NCBI GenBank assembly: GCA_964349765.1
Contig: CAYGGZ010000005.1
Span: 15,918-79,917, forward strand
DNA from: an uncultured Bacteroidales bacterium
Lineage (GTDB): Bacteria > Bacteroidota > Bacteroidia > Bacteroidales > JAAYJT01
DNA length: 64,000 nt
Reading direction: 5' to 3'
The notes under the pieces were generated by a model. That model was given only the letters and a program-made list of their open reading frames with translations, did no database searches and was not told the DNA's origin. Positions 2,635 through 48,923 of this stretch are shown piece by piece. The position numbers and the translations under genes were made by a program. Positions within the stretch are counted from its first letter, which is position 1. Each line of letters opens with the position of its first letter.

Positions 2635-3859
2635 AGTAGTAAAGTGTAGAGCAGTTTTCGCTGCGGAAAGTGCGTTTGGCGAAGTCGTGAATAGTATCCG
2701 GGGTAACTTCGCAGTAACGTTCAAGTTCCCGGTTAATCATTGAAGCATCGCCAAGCAATTCAAAATGACTAATATTAATAGCTTTTTCAACTACTTTGAT
2801 TTCGGAGAACAGCAAAAGCGATTCAACCCTGTTTTTCACTTTTTGTATTTCTCTTGGTTCGCACAGATGGTATGTTAGTTTTGCGACCTCTTCTTCAATT
2901 GCTGAGTTAGCTTGGGTCATATTAACTCCTTCCATTACTTTGCCCGAGACTACAAAAAGGCCCGGGTCGTTGCTTCCAGTTATGAAGGCGTTGATATCGC
3001 TGAAGAGTCGGCGTTTTTTTACCAGAGAAACATAGAGGCGTGCTGAGTCGCCAGCTGAAAGAATGTCGCTTGTGAGATCGGCCGTATAATAGTCGTGGTT
3101 GAGCCGCTGGCCAATATGCCAGGCCTTGTAAATGGCATGGTGTGGTACTGGTTTTTCGACTTCGAGGAGGCGGGCTTCGGCTTGAACAGGCTCCTGTGGC
3201 AGCGTACGCAGTGGCTTGACTCTGGCCGGGATGTCGCCAAACCATTTCTTGCAAAGCTCCTTTATCTCTTCAATAGTTACTGGCCCGGCAAGGGTAAGTA
3301 TAGCATTTGAAGGATGATAAAAGCGACGGAAAAAATCTTTCACATCACTCATGGCGGCTGATTCGATATGATTGATGTCTGCCCCTATAGTTGACCAGCG
3401 ATACGGATGAACCTTGTACGCCAATGGGCGCAGAAGCAACCATGCATCGCCATACGGCTGATTGAGATGTGTTTGACGAAACTCTTCTTTGACGACGTTT
3501 TTTTGAACCTTCAGGCTTTTCGCTGAGAACGCAAGCCCCATCATCCTGTCGGACTCAAGCCAAAAGGCAGTTTCAATATTTGGTTTGGGAACCGACAAAT
3601 GATAGCATGTAATATCGTTGGAGGTAAAAGCATTGTTTTCGCCACCTACTTTCTCAAGCGGTTCATCGTAGCGGGGGATATTTACCGATCCGCCAAACAT
3701 CAGGTGTTCAAACAGATGGGCAAAACCCGTACGATTGGGATCTTCGTCGCGTGCACCTACATCATACAAAACACTCATTGCCACTATGGGGGTTGTAAAA
3801 TCCTGATGAACAAGAACCTTCAACCCATTGGGCAGTTCAAAGCGCTCGAAATTTATCAT
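2606..3859 (-). CDS. M16 (pitrilysin/insulinase) family zinc peptidase
   Basis: 417 aa with an N-terminal GFAHLFEHLMFGG (HxxEH zinc motif). Co-oriented with a second M16 gene. Confidence 0.85.
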   Translation of the reverse strand: MINFERFELPNGLKVLVHQDFTTPIVAMSVLYDVGARDEDPNRTGFAHLFEHLMFGGSVNIPRYDEPLEKVGGENNAFTSNDITCYHLSVPKPNIETAFWLESDRMMGLAFSAKSLKVQKNVVKEEFRQTHLNQPYGDAWLLLRPLAYKVHPYRWSTIGADINHIESAAMSDVKDFFRRFYHPSNAILTLAGPVTIEEIKELCKKWFGDIPARVKPLRTLPQEPVQAEARLLEVEKPVPHHAIYKAWHIGQRLNHDYYTADLTSDILSAGDSARLYVSLVKKRRLFSDINAFITGSNDPGLFVVSGKVMEGVNMTQANSAIEEEVAKLTYHLCEPREIQKVKNRVESLLLFSEIKVVEKAINISHFELLGDASMINRELERYCEVTPDTIHDFAKRTFRSENCSTLYYYAKNLRYDN

Positions 3860-5211: not shown

Positions 5212-5697
5212 ATGACTGTTGCTGAATACAACAATTGCGTTGATAATTATGCCGATAGCGTGTATCGCTTCATTTTGAAAAATATTTGCGATGAGGAGAA
5301 AGCCCGCGATGTTGTGCAGGAGGCATTCCTTCGGCTATGGGAGCGTCGCAGCGAAGTAAAAGGGGGGAAATCGAAATCGTATCTTTTCACTGTAGCGTAT
5401 CACTCTATGATAGATGTGATTCGCAAAGATAAAAGGCAAATCCCTTTAGAAGAGCATCACAATCAGGATATTTGTTACGAAACGCCTGCTTTCGATCTTC
5501 AGCAGGTGCTTCACGAAGCACTTGACAAACTTCCGGCCATACAAAAATCGGTTGTGCTGTTGCGCGACTATGAAGGATACAGCTATGAAGAAATAGGTGA
5601 GATTACAGGGCTAAACGAATCGCAGGTGAAAGTTTATATCTACCGCGCCAGAGTGTGGTTGAAGAATTATATTGGAAGTTTGCAAAACGTAATATGA
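5212..5697 (+). CDS. ECF-type RNA polymerase sigma-70 family factor
   Basis: 161 aa. Region 2 (VVQEAFLRLWERR, YLFTVAYHSMIDVIRK) and region 4 (YEEIGEITGLNESQVKVYIYRAR). Confidence 0.9.
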   Translation: MTVAEYNNCVDNYADSVYRFILKNICDEEKARDVVQEAFLRLWERRSEVKGGKSKSYLFTVAYHSMIDVIRKDKRQIPLEEHHNQDICYETPAFDLQQVLHEALDKLPAIQKSVVLLRDYEGYSYEEIGEITGLNESQVKVYIYRARVWLKNYIGSLQNVI

Positions 5698-8674: not shown

Positions 8675-9418
8675 ATGTCGGGTCACAGTAAATGGGCAAC
8701 CATAAAAAGAAAGAAAGGCGCAATTGACGCCAAGCGGTCAAAAATATTTTCGAAAGTTATCAAGGATATTAATGTTGCTGTAAAGGATGGAGGTCCCGAC
8801 CCTGACGGCAACGCAAGACTGCGTCTTGCAATTTCTAACGCACGGGGTTGCAATATGCCTAAAGATAACATCCTGAGAGCTATTAATAAAGCTTCGGATA
8901 AGGATGCAGCAAGCTTTTCTGAAATCTCCTACGAAGGATATGCTGCACATGGAATAGCCGTGTACGTTGAATGCACAACCGATAACGTTCAACGCACCGT
9001 AGCCAATGTTCGTTCATACTTCAACAAATATGGAGGCAACCTTGGAACCAACGGTTCGCTAAATTTTCTGTTCGACCACAAAGGGGTTTTCACGGTTCCA
9101 CACGGCAATCTAAATCAGGATGAGTTTGAGATGGAACTTATTGACGCAGGAGCCGAGGATTTACAGCTCGAAGATGGTTTTTTTACCATCACAACCGGAA
9201 TGGAAAAATTTGGCCCGATGATGAAAAAGCTCGAATCCTTAGGTGTTGAACCCGAAAATGCTGGCTTACAGCGTATTCCGAAAGAGGTGGTGAAACTGGA
9301 CAGCAATGCCGCCCGAAGAGTTTTGAAACTTATCGAAGTTTTTGAAGAGGACGACGATGTGCAGAATGTTTATCACAACCTCGATATTTCGGATGAGCTT
9401 ATGTCGGAGATAGGATAA
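8675..9418 (+). CDS. yebC: YebC/PmpR family DNA-binding transcriptional regulator
   Basis: MSGHSKWATIKRKKGAIDAKRSKIFSK... is the canonical N-terminus; 247 aa. Confidence 0.95.
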   Translation: MSGHSKWATIKRKKGAIDAKRSKIFSKVIKDINVAVKDGGPDPDGNARLRLAISNARGCNMPKDNILRAINKASDKDAASFSEISYEGYAAHGIAVYVECTTDNVQRTVANVRSYFNKYGGNLGTNGSLNFLFDHKGVFTVPHGNLNQDEFEMELIDAGAEDLQLEDGFFTITTGMEKFGPMMKKLESLGVEPENAGLQRIPKEVVKLDSNAARRVLKLIEVFEEDDDVQNVYHNLDISDELMSEIG

Positions 9419-41434: not shown

Positions 41435-42322
41435 TTACATTCGTATAAATCTGGCAACCACGCCCAAAGGTAGTTGACGGCCACCCCGGTCGCTAACAGT
41501 TAGCTCTCCGTACTCAACGGTAGTGTTATTTCCGGCAATCGGCTGAACGAGATTAGCTGCCACGAGCGAAGAAAACCCCATTGAGTAAAGATTCAAAACA
41601 ATCATAGATGGTTGATCAACAAGTAAATGCTGACATAGATCCAGCAATTCGCCAAGAGAATCTTCGAGTATCCATTTCTCGCCGCCGGCTCCTCTGCCGT
41701 ATGCAGGAGGGTCGAGTATGATTGCATGATACTTGCTTCCGCGTCGAACCTCTCTGTGTGTAAAGCGAAGGGCATCTTCAGCCAACCAACGCACTCCTTC
41801 CAATCCGGAAGCTTCCATATTGTTGCGCGACCAAGTGAGTACCGACCTTACTGAATCAACATGCACCACCGTTGCACCGCCAGCAAGCGCTGCCAGAGTG
41901 GCTCCGCCGGTGTACGCAAACAGGTTGAGCACCTGCGGTTTTGACACCTTAAACTGCCTTAAATGATGAAAAATGTAATTCCAATTGTTGCTCTGCTCAG
42001 GAAAAACGCCAACATGGCCTGAAGAAGTAAGTCCAACTCTTAACCTAAATTTTAGTTCGCCTGATGAATATTGGATAAACCACTGCTCAGGACTTCCTTT
42101 TTTTAGAATCCAGTTTCCTCGTTCTGATCCTGTTTCAGGTTTTTCCCGTGCGAACCGGGCATGATGCAACCTCTCCCATTCGGAGCTATCAAGAGCCGGT
42201 TTCCAGATTGCTTGTGGCTCGGGTCGCCACACAATATATTCACCGAACCTTTCCAGTTTAGAAAAACCACCACTGTCAACCAGTTCGTAATCACGCCAAT
42301 CCCTGATTTCGGATATGTGCAT
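41435..42322 (-). CDS. class I SAM-dependent RNA methyltransferase (RlmI/PF10672-like)
   Basis: VLNLFAYTGGATLAAL (SAM motif I), IILDPPAY(G)RG. Length and architecture resemble the RlmI-like catalytic domain. Confidence 0.7.
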   Translation of the reverse strand: MHISEIRDWRDYELVDSGGFSKLERFGEYIVWRPEPQAIWKPALDSSEWERLHHARFAREKPETGSERGNWILKKGSPEQWFIQYSSGELKFRLRVGLTSSGHVGVFPEQSNNWNYIFHHLRQFKVSKPQVLNLFAYTGGATLAALAGGATVVHVDSVRSVLTWSRNNMEASGLEGVRWLAEDALRFTHREVRRGSKYHAIILDPPAYGRGAGGEKWILEDSLGELLDLCQHLLVDQPSMIVLNLYSMGFSSLVAANLVQPIAGNNTTVEYGELTVSDRGGRQLPLGVVARFIRM

Positions 42323-42747
42323 TTCTGATTAGAGTTTTTAATAAGGGTGCAAAGATGAGCATTAATTGTTAACAATTCTGAAAACAAACTACAAGCTATC
42401 CTGCAAAGGATTGTATTCATAGCAAAACGGAAGGTTTTAGTATGGGATTAACAAGTTACAAGCAAGCCTAAAAGACGACACCACAACCATCAACCTGACA
42501 CCTAAACCTCGAACTTTGACATCCTGACCAGACTTTTCAGTCAACCTTAACACGGCAGACAATTTCGCTGTATCTCGACTCCGACCAGCAGACCAACTTG
42601 ACGAAACACAAGCCAACCCCTCTACAAAGCCAAAAGAGCCACTTTTTTCCTACGCACCAAAGACGGTAGAGACAGCAAATACGCAATTTGTAGAGCCCAT
42701 ACTTAAATTTATTTTCATAAAAAGTTTGATAATTAGAAAACTTTGAC

Positions 42748-42755
42748 TACTTTTG
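42748..42755 (+). promoter_or_regulatory. candidate -7 box (TAnnTTTG) for the Type I R-M operon
   Basis: tacttttg sits 25 nt upstream of the TTG start of the half-hsdS ORF, with tttgac just upstream. A second match, taaatttg (42773-42780), overlaps that start. Confidence 0.3.
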
Positions 42756-42779
42756 TAGAGTCATTACAAAGGAATAAAT

Positions 42780-43346
42780 TTGAAAACCTTAATTAAACAT
42801 ATCACAAACATCCAAACCGGACTCTTTGCAAAGCCCTCTGGCAGTGGCAATGTTGTGTATTTACAATCCAAGCATTTTGACGAAAACGGACAATTGCATG
42901 CTGTTCTTCACCCTGATTTGGTGGCTGAGGGGATTTCTGAAAAGCATCTGCTAAGAGACGGTGATGTGATTTTTGCAGCGAAGGGTTATAAAAACTTTGC
43001 AGCCGTTTTTGAAAACCACAACGAACCTTCCGTTGCTTCTACCTCCTTCTTTGTTATAAGACCAACCGACCAAAAAGTGTTGTCTAAATATTTGGTTTGG
43101 TTTCTAAATAACCACACCACACAAACACTTTTAAAAGGCCAAGCCATCGGAACTTCAATTCCTTCCATTTCAAAACAGGTTTTAGAAAATCTGGAAATTA
43201 CAGTGCCGAGCATTGAAATCCAAAAGGCGATTCTGAAAATCACAAAACTCCGCAACAAGGAGAAAGCTTTGAAGCAGGAATTAGAACTTTTAAGAGATAG
43301 AAAAATAAATCAACAGCTATTACAGGCTATAAACTATGAGAGATAA
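42780..43346 (+). CDS. hsdS: Type I restriction-modification specificity subunit, half-size (single TRD plus one conserved helix)
   Basis: 188 aa. TRD-like body (GDVIFAAKG...SFFVIRP...YLVWFLN...GTSIPSISK..LENLEI.VPS.EIQ..I) and a coiled-coil tail. Only a TTG start is available; the last codons lie in an inverted-repeat arm. Confidence 0.65.
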   Translation: MKTLIKHITNIQTGLFAKPSGSGNVVYLQSKHFDENGQLHAVLHPDLVAEGISEKHLLRDGDVIFAAKGYKNFAAVFENHNEPSVASTSFFVIRPTDQKVLSKYLVWFLNNHTTQTLLKGQAIGTSIPSISKQVLENLEITVPSIEIQKAILKITKLRNKEKALKQELELLRDRKINQQLLQAINYER

Positions 43347-43355
43347 GATATGAGA
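43335..43355. repeat. left inverted-repeat arm of four-helix-bundle cassette 1
   Basis: tatgagagataagatatgaga matches the reverse complement of the CATATCT array (tatgagatatgagatatgaga) at 19 of 21 positions. It contains the hsdS-half stop codon and the cassette gene's ATG. Confidence 0.8.
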
Positions 43356-43718
43356 CAAAGTAAATCCATATTAAAAGACAAATCATTTGCGTTTGCGATA
43401 GCTATTGTGAGGGCATATAAAACTCTTGTTGAAGAGAAAAGAGAATTTGTGATGAGCAAACAATTGTTGCGTTCAGGAACTTCAGTTGGTGCAAATATTC
43501 GTGAGGCAAAAAATGCTGAAAGCACAAATGACTTCATCCATAAACTTGGCATAGCCCAAAAAGAATGTGATGAAACTTTGTACTGGCTTGAATTGCTCAA
43601 GAAAACTGAATTCCTTAATGAACAAACTTTTTTAGAACTCTCAGACCAAGCCAATCAAATCCTTAAAATGATTCGAAGCACCATCTTAACCATCAAACAA
43701 AAAAATCTCAAATCTTAA
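43350..43718 (+). CDS. four helix bundle protein (23S rRNA intervening-sequence protein family, PF05635)
   Basis: KSFAFAIAIVRAYKTL....EFVMSKQLLRSGTSVGANIREAKNAES..DFIHKLGIAQKECDETLYWLELL is the family signature. Confidence 0.9.
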   Translation: MRQSKSILKDKSFAFAIAIVRAYKTLVEEKREFVMSKQLLRSGTSVGANIREAKNAESTNDFIHKLGIAQKECDETLYWLELLKKTEFLNEQTFLELSDQANQILKMIRSTILTIKQKNLKS

Positions 43719-43722
43719 ATCC

Positions 43723-43760
43723 CATATCTCATATCTCATATCTCATATCTCATATCTCAT
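43723..43760 (+). repeat. heptanucleotide tandem repeat (CATATCT x5.4) ending in the hsdM start codon; right arm of cassette 1
   Basis: Direct reading: catatct catatct catatct catatct catatct cat|g. The ATG of hsdM (43759-43761) is formed by the last partial unit. Confidence 0.95.
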
Positions 43761-45456
43761 GGCTAAAATAACTCAGAAAGACATCAACGATGCAGTTTGG
43801 AAAGCTTGCGACACCTTTAGGGGAAGCATTGACCCAAGCGTTTACAAAGACTATGTACTTACCATGCTATTCCTAAAATATCTCAGCGATGTGCATGACG
43901 ATAAAATGGAAAGCTACCTGAAAAAGTACAATGGCGATATGGAACGTGCCAAACGTGCCATGCAGCACGAACGATTCATTGTACCGGAGCATAGCCATTT
44001 TAAGTTTCTGTACGATTCTCGGAACGAAGCCAATATTGGTGAACTCATTAATATTGCTTTGGCAGATTTGGAAGAAGCCAACCGTGAGAAATTGTACAGT
44101 GAAGACGGTGCAGGTATTTTCCAGAACATTGACTTTAACAGCAGCAAGCTGGGCGAACCCAAAGACAAAAACACCCGACTGAAAAACCTCTTGCTCGATT
44201 TCAACAAGGATGCTTTGAACCTTCGTCCTTCCCATTTGGATGGTAACGACATTATTGGGGGTGCTTACATGTTCCTCATTGAAAACTTTGCCAGTGATGC
44301 AGGGAAAAAAGCGGGAGAATTTTTTACACCAAAAGAAGTATCTACGCTTATTGCCAAACTCACCAAATCAAAACCCGGTTCACGCATAAGTGATCCAACC
44401 TGCGGTTCGGCTTCACTCTTGATAAAAGCAGGCGAAGAAGTTGGTTCAGATAATTTTTCACTTTACGGACAAGAAGCAAACGGCAGCACCTGGGCATTAG
44501 CTGTGATGAATATGTTTTTGCATGGCTTCGATAACGCTACTATTCGCTGGGGCGATACCATCCGCAACCCCAAACTAAAGGAAGGCGATACGCTGATGAA
44601 GTTTGATACCGTAGTGGCAAATCCGCCATTCTCTTTAGACAAATGGGGAAAGGTAGAAGACAAGGAAGGCGACAAAACCACCATCAGCTACGACCCCGAA
44701 ACCGACAAATACAACCGTTTTTGGAGAGGCGTGCCACCCAAGAGCAAAGGCGACTGGGCATTTATCAGCCACATGATAGAAACCTTGAACGAACATGGAA
44801 AAGCGGGTGTGGTAGTGCCACATGGTGTATTGTTTCGTGGCAGCAGCGAAGGCCGCATACGCCAACGCACCATTGAAGAAAACCTGTTGGAAGCAGTAAT
44901 TGGCTTACCTGCCAACCTGTTTTTTGGTACAGGTATTCCGGCTGCAATCTTAGTTTTTAACAAGCAAAAAAGCAGCAACAACGTATTGTTTATTGATGCC
45001 AGCAAGCACTACGAAAGTGTCAAAAACCAAAATAAGCTGCGATCTTCAGATATTGAGCGAATAGTAGGAACTTATGAACTCTTGCAGAGCTATGAACTAG
45101 GAGATATAAGTTATGAGATGCTGGAGAAATCAGGAAAATGGAAAGTGGATGGTGATTATTTGATAAGCCTTCGTTCAGGTAGCAAACTACTCAAATCCGA
45201 ACTCGAAATCTTAAACAACAAAAATCTCAAATCTCATCCCTCATATCTCATATCTCCGAAATACAGCTATGTAGCTTCCCCTGAAGAAATACAGGTAAAC
45301 GACTATAACCTGAACATTCCACGCTATGTGGACACTTTTGAAGAAGAACCCGAAGTGGATATTGCTGCGGTGCAAAAGGAGATTGAACAACTGGAAGGCG
45401 AATTAGTGAAAGTGCAAAGTGAGATTGAAGTTTATTTAAAACAATTAATAAATTAG
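43759..45456 (+). CDS. hsdM: Type I restriction-modification DNA methyltransferase subunit M (N6-adenine)
   Basis: HsdM_N helical domain; motif I DPTCGSASLL; motif IV VANPPFS; C-terminal NDYNLNIPRYVD. At 565 aa it is longer than usual because of an insertion at about 45091-45257. Confidence 0.95.
   Translation: MAKITQKDINDAVWKACDTFRGSIDPSVYKDYVLTMLFLKYLSDVHDDKMESYLKKYNGDMERAKRAMQHERFIVPEHSHFKFLYDSRNEANIGELINIALADLEEANREKLYSEDGAGIFQNIDFNSSKLGEPKDKNTRLKNLLLDFNKDALNLRPSHLDGNDIIGGAYMFLIENFASDAGKKAGEFFTPKEVSTLIAKLTKSKPGSRISDPTCGSASLLIKAGEEVGSDNFSLYGQEANGSTWALAVMNMFLHGFDNATIRWGDTIRNPKLKEGDTLMKFDTVVANPPFSLDKWGKVEDKEGDKTTISYDPETDKYNRFWRGVPPKSKGDWAFISHMIETLNEHGKAGVVVPHGVLFRGSSEGRIRQRTIEENLLEAVIGLPANLFFGTGIPAAILVFNKQKSSNNVLFIDASKHYESVKNQNKLRSSDIERIVGTYELLQSYELGDISYEMLEKSGKWKVDGDYLISLRSGSKLLKSELEILNNKNLKSHPSYLISPKYSYVASPEEIQVNDYNLNIPRYVDTFEEEPEVDIAAVQKEIEQLEGELVKVQSEIEVYLKQLIN
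45091..45257 (+). repeat. decayed four-helix-bundle-cassette-like insertion, in frame within hsdM
   Basis: The left end tatgaactaggagatataagttatgagatg is homologous to 47141-47172. The right end aaaaatctcaaatctcatccctcatatctcatatctcc is ~90% identical to 43701-43740 (the cassette 1 end), with the TAA stop replaced by CAT. Confidence 0.7.
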
Positions 45457-45482
45457 CCATTTCGAGCGCAACCTCGAAATGG
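45457..45482 (+). terminator. perfect 10-bp hairpin immediately after the hsdM stop
   Basis: ccatttcgag (45457-45466), loop cgcaac, ctcgaaatgg (45473-45482). There is no clear T-run, so its function (terminator or processing site) is uncertain. Confidence 0.4.
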
Positions 45483-45502
45483 TTCAATATAAAGTGATTA
45501 TT

Positions 45503-46342
45503 ATGGCTAAAGAAAAAAAATCAACCATTGTTGTTCAAGGATTGGCAGTTAACATTATTAGCCAATCTCAAGTCGATTATATATCAATAACAGATATTGC
45601 ACGGCACAGAGATGCCGACCGCAGCGATTATATTCTTCAGAACTGGCTACGAAACCGAAGTACAATAGAGTTTATTGGGCTTTGGGAACAACTTCGAAAT
45701 CCATATTTTAATTCCATCGAATTCGATGGAATTAAAATTATGTCGGGGTCAAATAGCTTTTCACTGACACCAAAGAGATGGATAGAAAGCACCAACGCTA
45801 TAGGCATCGTCTCCAAAACAGGAAGATATGGAGGCACATTTGCACATAAGGACATAGCCTTTGAATTTGCCTCATGGATAAGCGCCGAATTCAAAATGTA
45901 CCTGATTGTAGAATTTCAACGCCTGAAGGAAGACGAAAACCGGAGGCTTTCACTGGAATGGAACCTGAACCGCACCTTATCCAAGGTAAACTATCGCATC
46001 CATACCGATGCCATAAAAGAGAATATTATTCCCGCCAACACCACTAAAGAGCAAGAACATTTTATTTATGCCAATGAAGCCGATGTTCTGAATGTAGCTC
46101 TCTTTGGGCAAACAGCAAAGCAATGGCGAAAAACCAACCCCGACAAGGAAGGCAATTTAAGGGATGATAGTACGGTAGAGCAATTGTTGGTAATGGCCAA
46201 TCTGGAAAGCATGAATGCCGAATTTATCCGAATGGGCTTGCCACAAGGTGAAAGACTGAGAAAACTCAATGCCATTGCCATTCAGCAACTAAAATCGTTG
46301 GTGGGAAATGTGAATCTTAAAAAACTGGGAGATGGAATATAA
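45503..46342 (+). CDS. KilA-N domain-containing protein
   Basis: From MAKEKKSTIVVQG..DYISITDIARHRD.....ILQNWLRNRSTIEFIGLWEQLRNP.F......GRYGGTFAHKDIAFEFASWISAEFKMYLIVEFQRLKEDE. This family is commonly embedded in Bacteroidota Type I R-M loci. Confidence 0.85.
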   Translation: MAKEKKSTIVVQGLAVNIISQSQVDYISITDIARHRDADRSDYILQNWLRNRSTIEFIGLWEQLRNPYFNSIEFDGIKIMSGSNSFSLTPKRWIESTNAIGIVSKTGRYGGTFAHKDIAFEFASWISAEFKMYLIVEFQRLKEDENRRLSLEWNLNRTLSKVNYRIHTDAIKENIIPANTTKEQEHFIYANEADVLNVALFGQTAKQWRKTNPDKEGNLRDDSTVEQLLVMANLESMNAEFIRMGLPQGERLRKLNAIAIQQLKSLVGNVNLKKLGDGI

Positions 46343-46512
46343 TACGAATTATCATGCAGTTTCAGATCACTTAGAGATTACTCTCGAGGATATCATGCAA
46401 ATCAATGAACCCAAGCCATTAAAAACACCTAAAAAGAAAAAGTAGTCTGAACCATGATTCATCTGATTTTTATGATGGTCATGATTCTCAAACAAAAAAT
46501 CAAAGCAATCAC

Positions 46513-47814
46513 ATGTTTCAAAAAAATCATAGTGCAGACAATAACGAAATTCCGAGTGATTGGGATGTTAAGCATTTTGAGGATGTAGCGGATATTGATA
46601 AGGAGAGCTTGAATGCTAATACTCCAAATGATTACGAGTTCGATTATATCTCTCTTTCTGATGTTGATTCTGTTGATTTTAATATAGAAACAACAAGGCA
46701 AATATTTGCTACAGCACCATCGAGGGCAAGAAGAATTGTTAAACAAGGGGATATTTTAATGTCCACTGTTCGCCCAAATCTTCAAGGTTTTGTCCTTTTA
46801 AGAAATGAGGTTAAAGATTTAATTGCTTCAACTGGTTTTGCTGTAATTACAGCAAAAAAGTGTAGTAAAGAATATCTATTTCAATATTTATTCAGTTCAG
46901 GCATTCAAAAACAATTTTATCACCTGTTGGTTGGTTCCAATTATCCTGCTATAAACTCATCCGATGTAAAAAAACTCAAAATCCCCCTCCCCCCACTCCC
47001 CGAGCAAAAAGCTATAGCCCAAGTGCTAAGCACGGCCGATGCCGCCATCCACACCACCGAAAAACTTATTGCCCAAAAAGAACTGCAAAAAAAATGGCTG
47101 ATGCAGCAATTGCTTACGGGGAAGAAACGGCTTTTTTCTAGAGATGAGTTAGGAGATATGAGTTATGAGTTGAAGAAAGTAAAATTTACAGATGTGTTTC
47201 AAATTATGAAATCTTACTCTATTTCTAGAGAAGGGTTAAGTGATATAGTTGACGAAAGCTCAGTTTATTGTATTCATTATGGAGATATACATGCATTTTA
47301 CTCCAATGAGTTCTTAGATTTTTCTTCTCAAAAAGGTATCCCATCTTTAAAAAATGAAATATTGATTAACCCTAAGGACTTTTTACAGGATGGCGACATA
47401 CTAATGGCTGATGCATCTGAAGATTATGAAGGTGTTGGTGAGATAGTAGAAGTAACAAACTTAAAAGATAAAAAAGCAATTGGAGGATTACACACAATTG
47501 TGCTTAGGCCTAGCAAAAAAGTTATATCACCAAAATACACAGCTTATCTTTTGTCCAGCGAAATAGTAAAAAATGAACTAAGAAAAAAAGCTACTGGCAC
47601 ATCAGTTTATAGCGTTTCCAAGTCAACACTTCATAACTTATCTCTCATAATTCATAACTCCTTAAAAGAACAAACCGCCATTGCCAAGGTACTGCAAGCG
47701 GCAGATAAAGAAATCAGCCTGCTCAAAGCCAAAGCAGATAAGTTGCAGGAGCAGAAAAAGGGATTGATGCAGCAGCTACTCACCGGTAAAGTGAGATTGA
47801 AAATTGAAAACTAA
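46513..47814 (+). CDS. hsdS: Type I restriction-modification specificity subunit S (two TRDs)
   Basis: 433 aa. Two conserved regions, LPPLPEQKAIAQVLSTADAAI...LMQQLLTGKKRL and LKEQTAIAKVLQAADKEI...LMQQLLTGKVRL, separate two AT-rich TRDs. Confidence 0.95.
   Translation: MFQKNHSADNNEIPSDWDVKHFEDVADIDKESLNANTPNDYEFDYISLSDVDSVDFNIETTRQIFATAPSRARRIVKQGDILMSTVRPNLQGFVLLRNEVKDLIASTGFAVITAKKCSKEYLFQYLFSSGIQKQFYHLLVGSNYPAINSSDVKKLKIPLPPLPEQKAIAQVLSTADAAIHTTEKLIAQKELQKKWLMQQLLTGKKRLFSRDELGDMSYELKKVKFTDVFQIMKSYSISREGLSDIVDESSVYCIHYGDIHAFYSNEFLDFSSQKGIPSLKNEILINPKDFLQDGDILMADASEDYEGVGEIVEVTNLKDKKAIGGLHTIVLRPSKKVISPKYTAYLLSSEIVKNELRKKATGTSVYSVSKSTLHNLSLIIHNSLKEQTAIAKVLQAADKEISLLKAKADKLQEQKKGLMQQLLTGKVRLKIEN
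47141..47172. repeat. inverted-repeat arm at the 5' edge of hsdS TRD2
   Basis: gagatgagttaggagatatgagttatgagttg. 25 of 29 positions are identical to the hsdM-internal left end (45092-45120). Its inverted partner is at 47632-47661. Confidence 0.7.
47632..47661. repeat. inverted-repeat arm at the 3' edge of hsdS TRD2
   Basis: cataacttatctctcataattcataactcc. Its reverse complement ggagttatgaattatgagagataagttatg matches ggagatatgagttatgag (47151-47168) at about 15 of 18 positions. Confidence 0.65.
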
Positions 47815-47825
47815 ACAAAATTGAT

Positions 47826-48677
47826 ATGGCAAAAAAATTACAACGAATCGCAATCGCCTATGACTTTGATGGAACTTTGGCCCCAGGCAATATGCAGCAG
47901 CATTCTTTTATTCCAAAACTAGGTGTTGATAGCGGTACTTTTTGGAAGGAGGTAAAAGCTATCGCAAAAGAAAACGACATGAATGAGATATTGGCATACA
48001 TGCACCATATGATTAAAAAGGCTGATGAAAAGAATATCCCAATAACTAAAAAAGCTTTTGTTGAACATGGCAAAGGGATGCCTATGTTTCCTGGTGTTGT
48101 CGAATATTTTGAAAAGATTAATGAATATGCCAAATCAAAAGAATTGGTTGTAGAACATTATATTATTTCTTCAGGCCTTCGAGATATTCTGAAAGGAACA
48201 CCAATTCATAAAGAATTTGAAATGGTTTTTGCTTCTGCTTATAAGTATAACGTTAACGATGTTGCAGAATGGCCGGCATTAGCAATTGACTATACTAACA
48301 AAACGCAATTTCTATTCAGGATAAATAAAGGAATTAAAAACGCTTGGGATAATGAAAGCATAAATAAGTTTATGCCAGAAAATGAAAGACCTATGCCATT
48401 TAACCGAATGATTTATTTGGGTGATGGTGAGTCTGATATTCCGGCAATGAAAATGATAAATTTTCAAGGTGGGAAATCTATTGCCGTTTATAATCCTGAT
48501 ACTAAAACAAAAGCTGGTAAAAAAGCTAAAAAGATAACTCAAGAACTTGTTTCACAAGGTAGGGCAAACTACGTAGCTCCTGCAGACTACTCTGAGGGAA
48601 GTTCACTTTATAAAATCATTCAGTTGTGCATAGATTCAATGGCTGCGGAAATTGAATTGCAAAATTTTAAAAAGTAA
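47826..48677 (+). CDS. HAD superfamily phosphatase-like protein
   Basis: HAD motif I IAYDFDGTLAP (DxDxT), motif II ISSG, motif IV YLGDGESDIPAMK; 283 aa. Lies between hsdS and hsdR. Confidence 0.7.
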   Translation: MAKKLQRIAIAYDFDGTLAPGNMQQHSFIPKLGVDSGTFWKEVKAIAKENDMNEILAYMHHMIKKADEKNIPITKKAFVEHGKGMPMFPGVVEYFEKINEYAKSKELVVEHYIISSGLRDILKGTPIHKEFEMVFASAYKYNVNDVAEWPALAIDYTNKTQFLFRINKGIKNAWDNESINKFMPENERPMPFNRMIYLGDGESDIPAMKMINFQGGKSIAVYNPDTKTKAGKKAKKITQELVSQGRANYVAPADYSEGSSLYKIIQLCIDSMAAEIELQNFKK

Positions 48678-48680
48678 CAT

Positions 48681-48920
48681 ATGGCACGCAAAGAAAGACA
48701 TGTAGTTCCCAATTCCGAAAAAGGCGGTTGGGATTCAAAAAGAGAAAATGCAGAAAGGGCTTCCAAGAATTTTGAAACCAAGAAAGAAGCTATGGACTGG
48801 AGTCGTGAAAAAGCAAAACAGGAGAAATCTGAATTGATACCACATGGAAAAGATGGAAAAATTCAGAATCCGAATAGCTATGGTAGTGATCCCAATCCAC
48901 CTAAGGATAAAAACAAATAG
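48681..48920 (+). CDS. DUF2188 domain-containing small protein
   Basis: 79 aa; HVVPNSEKGGWDSKRENAERASKNFETKKEAMDWSRE.AK....ELIPHGKDGKI matches the DUF2188 pattern. Confidence 0.7.
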   Translation: MARKERHVVPNSEKGGWDSKRENAERASKNFETKKEAMDWSREKAKQEKSELIPHGKDGKIQNPNSYGSDPNPPKDKNK

Positions 48921-48923
48921 TTT

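Follow-up and report, generated by a model that had tools for sequence, protein, structure and literature searches.

Complementary heptamer arms with an intervening-sequence layout around the second target-recognition domain of a Type I hsdS gene

The hsdS gene, its arms and the surrounding operon

We analyzed a 64,000-nt stretch of DNA from an uncultured Bacteroidales bacterium (hereafter the window), which carries a Type I restriction-modification (R-M) operon. The specificity gene of this operon, hsdS, encodes a protein with two target-recognition domains (TRDs) and two conserved regions in the order TRD1-CR1-TRD2-CR2. TRD2 is enclosed by two complementary repeat arms, a G-type arm to its left and a C-type arm to its right, and arms of the same family recur in the rest of the operon, where several of them flank genes of the PF05635 family (23S rRNA intervening-sequence protein, a four-helix bundle; here called IVP1 and IVP2). 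The features are as follows:

42780-43346, +, half-size hsdS-like gene with one TRD and a conserved helix, upstream of hsdM and kept in relatives; its final codons fall within the IVP1 left arm
43328-43356, +, G-type arm left of IVP1, holding the half-hsdS stop codon and the IVP1 ATG
43350-43718, +, IVP1, PF05635 gene (Pfam) between half-hsdS and hsdM
43705-43760, +, C-type arm right of IVP1, (ATCTCAT)x8 running into the hsdM ATG
43759-45456, +, hsdM, 565 aa including a 57-aa insert
45087-45123, +, G-type arm inside hsdM, left end of the in-frame insert
45124-45223, +, interior of the hsdM insert, its 3' part related to the IVP1 3' end
45224-45256, +, C-type arm inside hsdM, right end of the insert, period 7 with 4.7 copies
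46513-47814, +, hsdS, 433 aa
47131-47172, +, left (G-type) arm of the TRD2 pair, a degenerate GAGWTAT array
47173-47630, +, TRD2 of hsdS, the enclosed cargo (Pfam Methylase_S, PF01420, and homologue alignment)
47631-47668, +, right (C-type) arm of the TRD2 pair, complementary to the left one
51019-54246, +, hsdR
54245-54275, +, G-type arm left of IVP2, unit AATTGAG / GGAGAAT
54247-54627, +, IVP2, second PF05635 gene (Pfam), between hsdR and a YgjP-like gene
54639-54672, +, C-type arm right of IVP2, an ATTCTCC array within the start of the YgjP-like gene

A first-pass annotation had placed the core of the left arm, gagatgagttaggagatatgagttatgagttg, at 47141-47172, just after LLTGKKRL, and that of the right arm, cataacttatctctcataattcataactcc, at 47632-47661, just before KEQTAIAKVL, and both sequences lie exactly there. 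A repeat search delimited the pair as 47131-47168 and 47631-47668, two 38-nt arms lying 462 nt apart and complementary at 28 of 38 positions (74%). The ungapped score of this pair across the two boundary regions was equalled by 0 of 200 shuffles; in TRD2 relatives without the left insertion, the same score gave p = 0.1-1. Both arms in the window consist of tandem, degenerate copies of a heptamer, GAGWTAT or its complement (at 47144-47171, four copies of period 7 with 80% matches), and several pairing registers are therefore possible. The window pair is among the weaker pairs of its family, and the strength of the observation comes from the relatives described below more than from the window itself; with them, the case is stronger than the first-pass annotation had made it.

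The left arm encodes the peptide FSRDELGDMSYEL directly after CR1, a 5-6 aa insertion relative to alleles that have KGFSGEW in the homologue alignment. In an AF2 model this peptide falls in a low-confidence surface linker that follows the CR1 helix and is not within it, and the right-arm peptide, LHNLSLIIHNSL, forms the final strand and turn ahead of CR2 (EQTAIAKVL). The AT-richness earlier ascribed to TRD2 is real (GC of 0.31-0.34, compared to 0.42-0.45 in the conserved regions) but not distinctive, as TRD1 is likewise AT-richer.

Outside hsdS, the arm at 45092-45120 within hsdM is identical to the hsdS left arm at 25 of 29 positions, in agreement with the first-pass annotation, and the core of the IVP1 left arm, TATGAGAGATAAGATATGA, is one position off the reverse complement of the hsdS right arm. 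Over its 3' part (45207-45256), the hsdM insert shares 78% identity with the 3' end of IVP1 (43688-43737). The family thus encloses four units in the operon: two PF05635 genes, a decayed in-frame PF05635 cassette in hsdM and TRD2 of hsdS, with the G-rich arm always 5' and its complement always 3'. Because the arms belong to a repeat family that encloses discrete units, TRD2 stands in a cassette-type frame. The heptamer arrays end a few bases from the start codons of hsdM, IVP1 and IVP2 and, in the related locus L009, before hsdS and hsdR. The connection between the arms and PF05635 or intervening-sequence elements had not been made in the first-pass annotation.

The same cassettes vary among related loci (designated by L or P numbers). 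The window, L003, L009, L010 and L069 carry the IVP cassette at the orthologous site, which L001 and L004 have empty; the hsdM insert is confined to the window, L003 and L009 and is missing from L001, L004 and L069. Comparison of empty with occupied sites revealed no clear target-site duplication at the PF05635 insertion. Of the 11 complete PF05635 cassettes that we inspected, 9 have inverted heptamer flanks, among them cassettes that separate nuoJ from nuoK or lie between glycoside-hydrolase genes. The cassettes inside operons are all co-oriented with their operon. Among hsdS loci, PF05635 genes were found only in those bearing arms (five loci, compared to none without arms). Internally deleted derivatives retaining both arms are represented by the hsdM insert and by compact, arm-only units of 126 nt that are amplified three times in L011. 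Viral contigs, queried with two of the arm sequences as well as IVP1 and IVP2, offered no R-M context, giving only solo tandem arrays and one distant PF05635 gene without arms. It is well supported that the two TRD2 arms are one pair of a 7-nt-unit inverted-array family with the layout of rRNA intervening sequences (IVS), here inside the hsdS ORF, in a region (42000-56500) where an Rfam scan found no rRNA or other Rfam family.

The two arms co-vary among relatives

Arms flanking TRD2 are present in relatives from Bacteroidota and Ignavibacteria that share the same TRD2 family. In L001 they are complementary at 26 of 27 positions and occupy the same two hsdS positions as in the window, as do those of L005, L009, L010, L011, L012 and L036-39; some relatives build them from other heptamers. 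Across 29 arm pairs from 16 distinct alleles, 83.6% of positions paired, compared to 33-48% when the arms were slid against each other. Nine of these pairs had changed on both sides, and 0 of 500 shuffles reached the covariation values. Between L011 and L001, for example, four arm positions differ on both sides, the right-arm changes being synonymous and the left-arm ones amino-acid-changing, and right-arm changes in relatives are in general mostly synonymous, mirroring the left arm. At synonymous third positions, the left arm had an identity of 0.89 and the right arm one of 0.77, compared to 0.58 for the interior of TRD2. Pairing stays near-perfect (25-27 of 27-29) across alleles from different orders and phyla whose TRD2 synonymous sites are down to 0.5-0.7 identity; in several lineages (L004, L006, L017 and L018) complementarity has decayed. 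The arms are thus constrained at the nucleotide level, and their two sides co-vary.

Arm units are also shared within operons. The PF05635 flanks, hsdM insert and TRD2 have GAGATAT in common in the window and L003, and GAATGAT/GAATTAT is the unit within the L009 and L010 operons. G-arms at two sites of one operon are identical at 25-27 of 30 positions, compared to 23 of 30 for the same site in the window and L009. This resemblance of the TRD2 arms to the other arms of their operon indicates concerted evolution.

The first-pass annotation had allowed that the arm similarity might reflect shared low-complexity codon usage. The arms are indeed AT-rich and periodic, and the fold of the whole window segment is no better than that of shuffles (z = -0.35), but the shuffle tests and covariation refute this cause; with the 26/27 pairing in L001 and the recurrence of arms around unrelated TRDs as well, we give chance a negligible probability.

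A role for the encoded peptide is very improbable. The left arm might serve as a variable-length linker, (DELGMMN)n, that tunes the spacing or flexibility between coiled coil and TRD2, with the DNA complementarity incidental. The copy number of the 21-nt, 7-aa unit does change in frame, from 0 in L034 and 1 in L001 to 4.5 in L069 (P0087/L069). Such a role leaves the right arm and the PF05635 flanks unexplained, and the modeled insert lies after the CR1 helix, not in it. Nor does it account for synonymous right-arm changes that mirror non-synonymous left-arm ones, or for the left arm of TRD1 in L038, which begins in the 5' UTR, extends into the first codons and is largely non-coding. The synonymous right-arm changes and this largely non-coding left arm also led us to reject protein contacts as the cause of the covariation.

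Three further candidates were set aside. The left arm does not in general supply an internal in-frame ATG for a TRD2-CR2 half subunit, as L011, L037, L038 and L068 have no Met there. Frameshifting phase variation at a simple sequence repeat does not fit arrays that are degenerate (80% matches) and change length by whole in-frame 21-nt units. An apparent TRD2 out of frame at both ends in L032/L063 proved to be a single G5 frameshift at the linker.

RNA stem, mobile cassette, relic or inversion

The explanation we favor, with a probability of about 40%, is that these are IVS-type arms that are kept complementary and may act as a long-range RNA stem. Minimum-free-energy (MFE) and centroid RNA folds pair the arms in the window TRD2 segment, as they do in L001, where the segment folds better than shuffles (z = -3.8); the arms of the IVP1 cassette pair as well (z = -1.8), as do those of the hsdM insert in its MFE fold. 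To our knowledge, forming a stem that is a substrate for RNase III is the only experimentally established activity of IVS arms. The arms would have reached the TRD boundaries through DNA-level copying or gene conversion from IVS-type cassettes, and would have been retained thanks to the tolerance of the CR1/TRD2 linker for insertions and the availability of synonymous codons for writing the right arm. They would now travel with the TRD as TRDs are shuffled through the conserved regions. By analogy with IVS, the arms of the transcript would pair into a 25-38 bp long-range stem closing off the TRD2-coding segment, exposing untranslated hsdS mRNA to RNase III-type cleavage, which would limit HsdS.

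Several observations weigh against such a stem. Translating ribosomes unwind a stem lying inside an ORF. The hsdS and hsdM ORFs are both intact and conserved, although their messages would be lost if cleavage were efficient. The mismatch types show no sign of selection on the sense-strand RNA: G.U and A.C mismatches number 12 to 10 in the TRD2 arms after removal of two fixed columns and 16 to 32 in all arm pairs, and those of the PF05635 arms run opposite to the RNA expectation. Complementarity has decayed in the four lineages named above and is 74% in the window. Mispairing is possible among arms of the same type at three sites of one transcript, and the covariation could have arisen from gene conversion alone. 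Compact arm-only derivatives resemble the formation of MITEs, a DNA-level process.

It is possible, although we find it doubtful, that the arms work at the DNA level, as terminal inverted repeats (TIRs) of cassettes that move or recombine, with the PF05635 gene borne by the autonomous form of the family. The arms would then be portable homology or recognition sites through which cargo, here a TRD, is exchanged, captured or deleted. The presence/absence polymorphism of the IVP cassette and hsdM insert and the internally deleted derivatives are in line with this, as are the confinement of PF05635 genes to arm-bearing hsdS loci, a uniform polarity expected if all pairs descend from one element, and an arm type common within each operon, as with TIRs and a cognate factor. 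Similar arms also enclose differing cargo, namely PF05635 genes and four TRD families. Three other, mutually distinct kinds of cargo are unrelated TRDs in relatives, which have complementary arms of their own, built from other heptamers: TRD2 of L068 (24/26), TRD1 of L038 (31/38) and L089 (25/31). Between L068 and L037/L038, whose conserved regions are ~95% identical, similarity is lost within the left arm on one side and at the right arm's outer end on the other.

On the other hand, no transposase or recombinase lies within the 64 kb, no clear target-site duplication was seen, and the coexistence of two arm types in one gene (L038) or one window (IVP1 and IVP2) would need two factors. The right arm overlaps homologous coding sequence that is also found in relatives without arms, and arm-flanked TRDs were seen only at the canonical, in-frame TRD positions of hsdS. 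The TRD2 cargo itself is present in every allele; in P0003, P0005 and P0006 the left insertion alone is missing. Arms accompany TRD2 into hsdS genes with at least four different TRD1 types, but because the flanking conserved regions already suffice to explain TRD shuffling, exchange exactly at the arms is not needed. In alleles with other TRD2 types, protein similarity is lost right after LLTGKKRL, which places the arms on the TRD2 side. The earlier proposal that the TRD is the cargo of a cassette is partly supported, as regards the cassette-like frame.

Alternatively, and unlikely in our view, the arms could be neutral traces of selfish IVS-type repeats that survive at the sole in-frame sites able to accept them, with no role in hsdS and with their similarity upheld by occasional gene conversion with other copies. 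The placement of the left arm in a low-confidence surface linker, where the peptide is free to vary (DELGMMNDEW, DELGIISDEW, DEIGDMRCEM), is consistent with this, as are the decay of arms in several lineages, the 74% complementarity of the window pair and the in-frame drift in copy number. Other alleles (L014 and L050) hold unrelated insertions at this same CR1/TRD2 linker, which fits a permissive or hot site, as the first-pass annotation had suggested for the TRD boundary. Neutrality is harder to reconcile with near-perfect pairing that persists across orders and phyla despite synonymous divergence of TRD2, and with the origin or retention of arms around four unrelated TRDs. Repeats of 27 nt are also poor substrates for RecA-dependent conversion.

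A recombinase encoded elsewhere might instead flip TRD2 between the arms, cutting HsdS to a TRD1-CR1 half subunit that could dimerize and so alter or abolish specificity. The geometry, an inverted-repeat pair inside one ORF and 460 bp apart in a member of the Bacteroidota, fits such an intragenic premature-stop inverton, and recombination between the arms would itself homogenize them. Flipped in silico, the L001 allele meets a stop immediately beyond the left arm and the window allele 12 codons beyond it, so inversion does not keep the reading frame and would truncate HsdS. TRD2 was inverted in none of 14 distinct arm-bearing alleles examined, and the PF05635 cassettes of operons are all co-oriented. 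The predicted inverted-junction ORF, searched against 5.8 billion proteins, matched only normal hsdS C-terminal fragments, and an exact look-up of ten predicted truncated products found none in 15 billion proteins. These negatives are weak, because assemblies report the majority orientation. Pfam searches of every ORF of at least 120 aa found no recombinase, transposase or invertase in the whole window, and we regard the inverton as improbable.

Classical hsdS inversion is likewise not supported: the window holds neither an invertase nor an hsdS copy in inverse orientation, and none of the alleles found is inverted. The first-pass annotation was right that a recombinase is absent but not that a separate hsdS copy is, as the half-size gene at 42780-43346 lies on the same strand and both TRD2 arms lie within one gene; the inversion or excision variants it had envisaged were not found in the assembled loci or protein look-ups. 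Under the explanation we favor, the TRD2 arms would not be a DNA inversion switch.

Full-text searches of open-access literature returned no description of this arrangement. Some 35 years after they became known, IVS and S23p/PF05635 proteins still, as far as we know, lack an origin, a mobility mechanism and a function on which there is agreement. The IVS arm architecture appears here in two settings outside rRNA: around PF05635 genes in ordinary operons (R-M, nuo and glycoside hydrolases), and around a host-protein domain, where the arms clearly co-evolve at the nucleotide level. As the same kind of arm flanks the operon's IVS-type genes, an hsdS domain is framed like the cassette of a selfish element. 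We can only speculate that heptamer arms form a general cassette system in Bacteroidota and neighboring phyla, with PF05635 genes or domains as cargo, in which the arms, possibly with the PF05635 protein, mediate copy-and-paste or RNA-level processing. If so, Type I specificity would have a new means of diversification, and intervening sequences and S23p proteins would at last be given a mechanism and function. For R-M biology, the arms point to either a new post-transcriptional control of the specificity subunit or a new TRD-moving route. The system is tractable, as pairing can be broken by synonymous mutations and read out in hsdS mRNA ends, HsdS level and the methylome. The repeat family will also confuse inverton finders.

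Comparison with known systems

In EcoR124I/II, central-region repeats between the TRDs alter their spacing. The left-arm copy number also varies in frame, but the AF2 model places its peptide in a low-confidence linker after the CR1 helix. Short inverted-repeat elements such as MITEs and Rickettsia palindromic elements are tolerated in frame within ORFs, and the arms share with them this tolerance and the existence of internally deleted derivatives (the hsdM insert and L011 units). The TRD2 pair has the terminal inverted repeats of a MITE; presence or absence of the whole unit is seen for the PF05635 cassette and hsdM insert and not for the TRD2 pair. The hsdS arms also differ in being split by a native functional domain, with no target duplication or transposase found.

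In Bacteroidota, the documented intragenic invertons include some whose repeats measure only 11 bp (PMC10028968). Like the Bacteroides premature-stop invertons, the hsdS arms are a short inverted-repeat pair wholly within an ORF whose flip gives an early stop; unlike them, they are tandem heptamer arrays of a type that also flanks whole, always co-oriented genes, with no flipped form detected in assemblies and no invertase nearby. Epigenetic invertons and hsdS shufflons (PMC7672463, PMC7394358) similarly have inverted repeats at TRD boundaries and a second hsdS-type gene in the locus. Here, the repeats lie inside one gene, the second hsdS is co-oriented, inversion breaks the frame and there is no invertase.

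Heptamer direct repeats (TAACTGA) upstream of start codons occur in Beggiatoaceae, Cyanobacteria and some Bacteroidetes (PMC4679880), and these too are variable-length tandem 7-nt arrays ending within a few bases of start codons. The unit here is another one, and the arrays form inverted pairs that enclose modules and also lie inside ORFs.

In the 23S IVS of Coxiella, tandem GACAGAT heptamers of variable copy number precede the S23p ATG, and RNase III cuts at the first heptamer repeat (PMC4990558). The hsdS pair departs from this in lying in an mRNA operon, inside a protein-coding gene and not in an rRNA helix, in having translated arms and in carrying TRD2 (PF01420) rather than S23p as cargo; RNase III cleavage is proposed here by analogy, and it would harm an mRNA. 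The likeness to the S23p IVS of Coxiella burnetii and Leptospira (PMC4990558) lies in a segment of ~370-470 nt within complementary, stem-forming flanks, tandem heptamers in the 5' flank whose copy number varies, PF05635 genes flanked in just this way in the same operon (43328-43760 and 54245-54672), and a sporadic distribution, as for a selfish element.

Complementary heptamer arrays at the boundaries of TRD2

The window, from a Bacteroidales MAG, carries a Type I R-M operon at 42.8-55.4 kb on the + strand, flanked by housekeeping genes and arranged as follows.

Genes of the R-M operon (window coordinates)
42780-43346, + strand: half-size hsdS, first gene of the operon
43350-43718, + strand: IVP1, a PF05635 (23S rRNA intervening-sequence protein, S23p) gene
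43759-45456, + strand: hsdM
45479-46342 region, + strand: KilA-N gene, between hsdM and hsdS
46513-47814, + strand: hsdS
47826-50585 region, + strand: HAD-like, DUF2188 and Schlafen/AlbA_2 genes, between hsdS and hsdR
51019-54246, + strand: hsdR
54247-54627, + strand: IVP2, second PF05635 gene
after IVP2, + strand: YgjP-like gene, last gene of the operon

The first-pass annotation had placed inverted repeats on either side of TRD2, the second DNA-recognition domain of HsdS, and both arms were found there. A repeat search of the window returned them as a 38-nt pair (47131-47168 and 47631-47668) with 74% complementarity. The left arm, translated as FSRDELGDMSYEL, comes directly after LLTGKKRL, and the right arm, translated as LHNLSLIIHNSL, just ahead of KEQTAIAKVL. 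When the two boundary regions were scored for ungapped inverted repeats, none of 200 shuffles did as well; TRD2 relatives lacking arms score at chance level. Rather than generic inverted repeats, the arms consist of degenerate tandem copies of a 7-nt unit, GAGWTAT on the left (G-type) and its complement on the right (C-type). A scan of the whole window located arrays of this family only within the R-M operon, and the same holds for the related unit at IVP2, GAGAATT. In the AF2 model of HsdS, residues 209-219, after the helix of conserved region 1 (CR1), have low confidence; the final strand and the turn into CR2 fall in the part encoded by the right arm. A degenerate 7-nt array (ATTTATC, 4.4 copies) for which no partner was identified lies within the YgjP-like gene at 55120-55150.

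The same kind of array brackets other units of the operon. The left flank of IVP1 (TATGAGAGATAAGATATGAGA, 43328-43356) includes both the IVP1 ATG and the codon at which the upstream gene stops, and a single position separates the core of this flank from the reverse-complemented right arm of hsdS; the right flank, (ATCTCAT)x8 at 43705-43760, reaches into the hsdM ATG. IVP2 lies between (AATTGAG)n and (ATTCTCC)n. Within hsdM, an in-frame 57-aa segment (45087-45256) with a G-type and a C-type arm at its ends replaces about 12 aa, and we confirmed the reported 25/29 identity between its left arm (45092-45120) and that of hsdS. This segment is a decayed PF05635 cassette, because it has an arm at either end, matches the 3' end of IVP1 with its arm at 78% identity in its own 3' part, and is present in the window and two relatives' loci (L003, L009) and absent from three others (L001, L004, L069). 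In the window this decayed IVS-type (rRNA intervening sequence) cassette is translated as part of the methyltransferase. The bracketing of TRD2 is real and more general than first described.

Every arm pair has the same polarity, G-type 5' and C-type 3'. A perfect (GAGATAT)n array offers an ATGA stop/start overlap every 7 nt, and hence in all three frames every 21 nt, and its complement is stop-free in every frame; this concerns window 43705-43760 as well as arrays at large. The G-arms supply the upstream gene with its stop and the enclosed gene with its ATG. In relatives, all sites of one operon have a common arm type: GAGATAT in the window and L003, and, in L009 and L010, GAATGAT/GAATTAT at TRD2, at the hsdM insert and beside the PF05635 genes. 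G-arms at the two sites within one operon agree at 25-27 of 30 positions; comparing one site between the window and L009 gives 23/30. L009 also has a G-type array over the hsdS start codon (5373-5404) and a C-type array ending just before the hsdR start (9383-9410); this outer pair spans hsdS, and with it the inner TRD2 pair, together with the variable cargo genes.

Cargo varies at two positions of the operon family (window, L001, L004, L068, L069), which is a defence-gene hot spot within a Type I operon. KilA-N, RhuM or Bro-N lies between hsdM and hsdS; between hsdS and hsdR, the three window genes are replaced by PDDEXK_3 and Fic in L001 and by PDDEXK_3, patatin, SMODS and metallophosphatase in L004. 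A perfect 10-bp hairpin (CCATTTCGAG ... CTCGAAATGG, 45457-45482) directly follows the hsdM stop, before the inserted KilA-N gene, and the spacer 5' of hsdS (46438-46512) holds another periodic repeat family (GTCTGAAYCAKGATT...). In L001 (7289-7389) the latter folds into an imperfect 41-nt hairpin covering the 3' end of hsdS, translated as a ...NQDFQDSGMN tail; several homologues have similar tails.

Covariation and constraint in relatives

Most HsdS homologues come from Bacteroidota. In their alignment the left arm appears as a 5-6 aa insertion replacing the usual KGFSGEW linker; it is limited to one TRD2 family and moves with that TRD2 into genes having at least four TRD1 types. The DNA of 60-odd loci was retrieved. 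The commonest allele type has near-perfect arms at the same two positions, as in L001, where the arms are 26/27 complementary, lie 465 nt apart, use GAATGAT in place of GAGTTAT and are the sole 7-nt arrays of the 13 kb locus. In other alleles both arms have changed jointly: L005 has GGAATTATGAAT in both, and L011 differs from L001 at four arm positions on both sides, with synonymous changes on the right and amino-acid changes on the left. Across an alignment of 16 distinct alleles (29 arm pairs), pairing was 83.6%, against 33-48% with the partner slid; 9 of the 29 pairs had changes on both sides, and none of 500 shuffles matched the pairing and covariation values. Synonymous third-position identity among seven L001-type alleles is lowest in the TRD2 interior (0.58), higher in the right arm (0.77) and highest in the left (0.89). 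In a tree of TRD2 interiors, most arm-bearing alleles form one large clade, with arms decayed in some lineages. The pair is therefore old, under constraint at the nucleotide level and lost now and then. That the arms are a neutral relic is unlikely, being hard to reconcile with 25-27 bp of pairing preserved across orders and phyla.

The in-frame 21-nt unit of the left arm is present 0 times in L034, which has one unit fewer than L001 (1), and about 4.5 times in L069 (3001-4362, LNDELGMMNDELGMMN...), where the array before the hsdM ATG (250-356) has also expanded, to five 14-nt units; all these length changes keep the reading frame. In two other loci (L032, about 1390-1410; L063, about 2985-3005) TRD2 is thrown out of frame by a run of five G (AAGGGGGTTT) in the linker between CR1 and TRD2, the mark of a pseudogene or else of phase variation at a homopolymer.

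The first-pass annotation had proposed a search for further TRD-like sequences between the same arms. Three unrelated TRDs do have complementary arms, but made of other heptamers: TRD2 of L068 (24/26, GATAATT), TRD1 of L038 and L039 (31/38 in L038), with a left arm that begins within the 5' UTR and extends into the first codons, and a TRD of L089 (25/31, GAAAAAT). The conserved regions of L068 and L037/L038 are about 95% identical and the outer 17 nt of the left arm are held in common; similarity ends within that arm and returns at the outer end of the right arm.

Arms also occur apart from a TRD. Three tandem 126-nt units lie 3' of hsdS in L011 (6655-7035; likewise in L042-L044), in each of which a G-arm and a C-arm, 24 nt apart, stand between a copy of the LLTGKKRL-coding end and a CR2-end relic from another allele; internal deletion of arm-TRD2-arm-CR2 modules, followed by amplification, seems to have produced them. 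Three IMG/VR contigs with no R-M gene match the L001-type arm exactly over 21 nt, all as solo arrays with no inverted partner: in L070 (8099-8119) and L072 (1119-1139) the match is translated as AHELGMMNDGP within a phage ORF, and in L071 (14-48) it lies near the contig start, 5' of an ORF without assigned identity.

Origin and present-day activity

For the arms we observed complementarity, covariation, synonymous-site conservation, recurrence around unrelated cargo and an operon-shared type. They may have been copied or converted from IVS-type cassettes onto TRD boundaries, where they would persist because the left linker is flexible and synonymous codons suffice to write the right arm.

As to present-day activity, we tentatively favour pairing of the arms in the transcript (probability roughly 0.4). 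For IVS arms, experiments have established one property only, cleavage of the stem by RNase III. In L001 the MFE and centroid folds are closed by the arms (z = -3.8), as are those of the TRD2 segment, IVP1 cassette and hsdM insert of the window, and arm sequence varies between cargos with complementarity retained. Our estimate is no higher because the mismatch types bear no sense-strand RNA signature, ribosomes melt stems inside ORFs, efficient cleavage would be harmful, arms have decayed in several lineages, and gene conversion alone could explain the covariation.

The original proposal, that TRD2 is cargo of a cassette-type unit, stands in part, as IVS-type arms do bracket both TRD2 and PF05635 units. 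MITE-like derivatives and presence/absence polymorphisms, which involve units carrying PF05635 genes and decayed units, speak for a cassette acting at the DNA level. However, no clear target duplication and no TRD cassette outside hsdS was seen, and, in agreement with the first-pass annotation, ORFs of at least 120 aa across the 64 kb gave no recombinase or transposase family match, so that activity of this kind is possible but doubtful. Inversion of TRD2 within the gene is very improbable: the geometry fits, and a flipped allele is predicted in silico to stop at once, but we looked for a flipped allele, a junction ORF and a truncated product and found none, leaving the inversion-type ideas unsupported.

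Relation to rRNA intervening sequences and hsdS invertons

Close IVP1 homologues lie co-oriented in unrelated operons (nuoJ/nuoK, between glycoside-hydrolase genes, and another R-M/defence locus), and inverted heptamers flank 9 of the 11 complete PF05635 cassettes examined. Genes 64-77% identical to IVP1, set between inverted heptamer arrays, occur in L083 (2436-2930), L085/L086 (2473-2900) and L087 (940-1370 and 2446-2930). In L083, GAGATAT x11 extends to the ATG of the PF05635 gene; in L084 the flanks are direct, not inverted, arrays, and in a viral contig (L082) the gene has no flanking arrays.

Full-text searches of an open-access library gave no description of such units outside rRNA with a TRD as cargo; the nearest reports concern heptamer repeats before start codons (PMC4679880), intragenic invertons (PMC10028968) and hsdS invertons. 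By definition, hsdS invertons combine two hsdS genes, an invertase and a frame-preserving inversion (PMC7672463), and none of these three features is seen here. The 23S rRNA IVS of Coxiella, in contrast, has the same anatomy as the arm-flanked units of the operon: tandem heptamers (GACAGAT), differing in copy number among strains, precede the S23p ATG, and the flanks pair as a stem that RNase III cuts at the first repeat (PMC4990558). Together with the heptamer-flanked PF05635 genes, this likeness identifies the operon's units as IVS-type elements outside rRNA, in one of which TRD2 takes the place of the S23p ORF. The rRNA IVS is the closest known kind, from which the TRD2 unit differs in lying in an mRNA and enclosing a protein domain.
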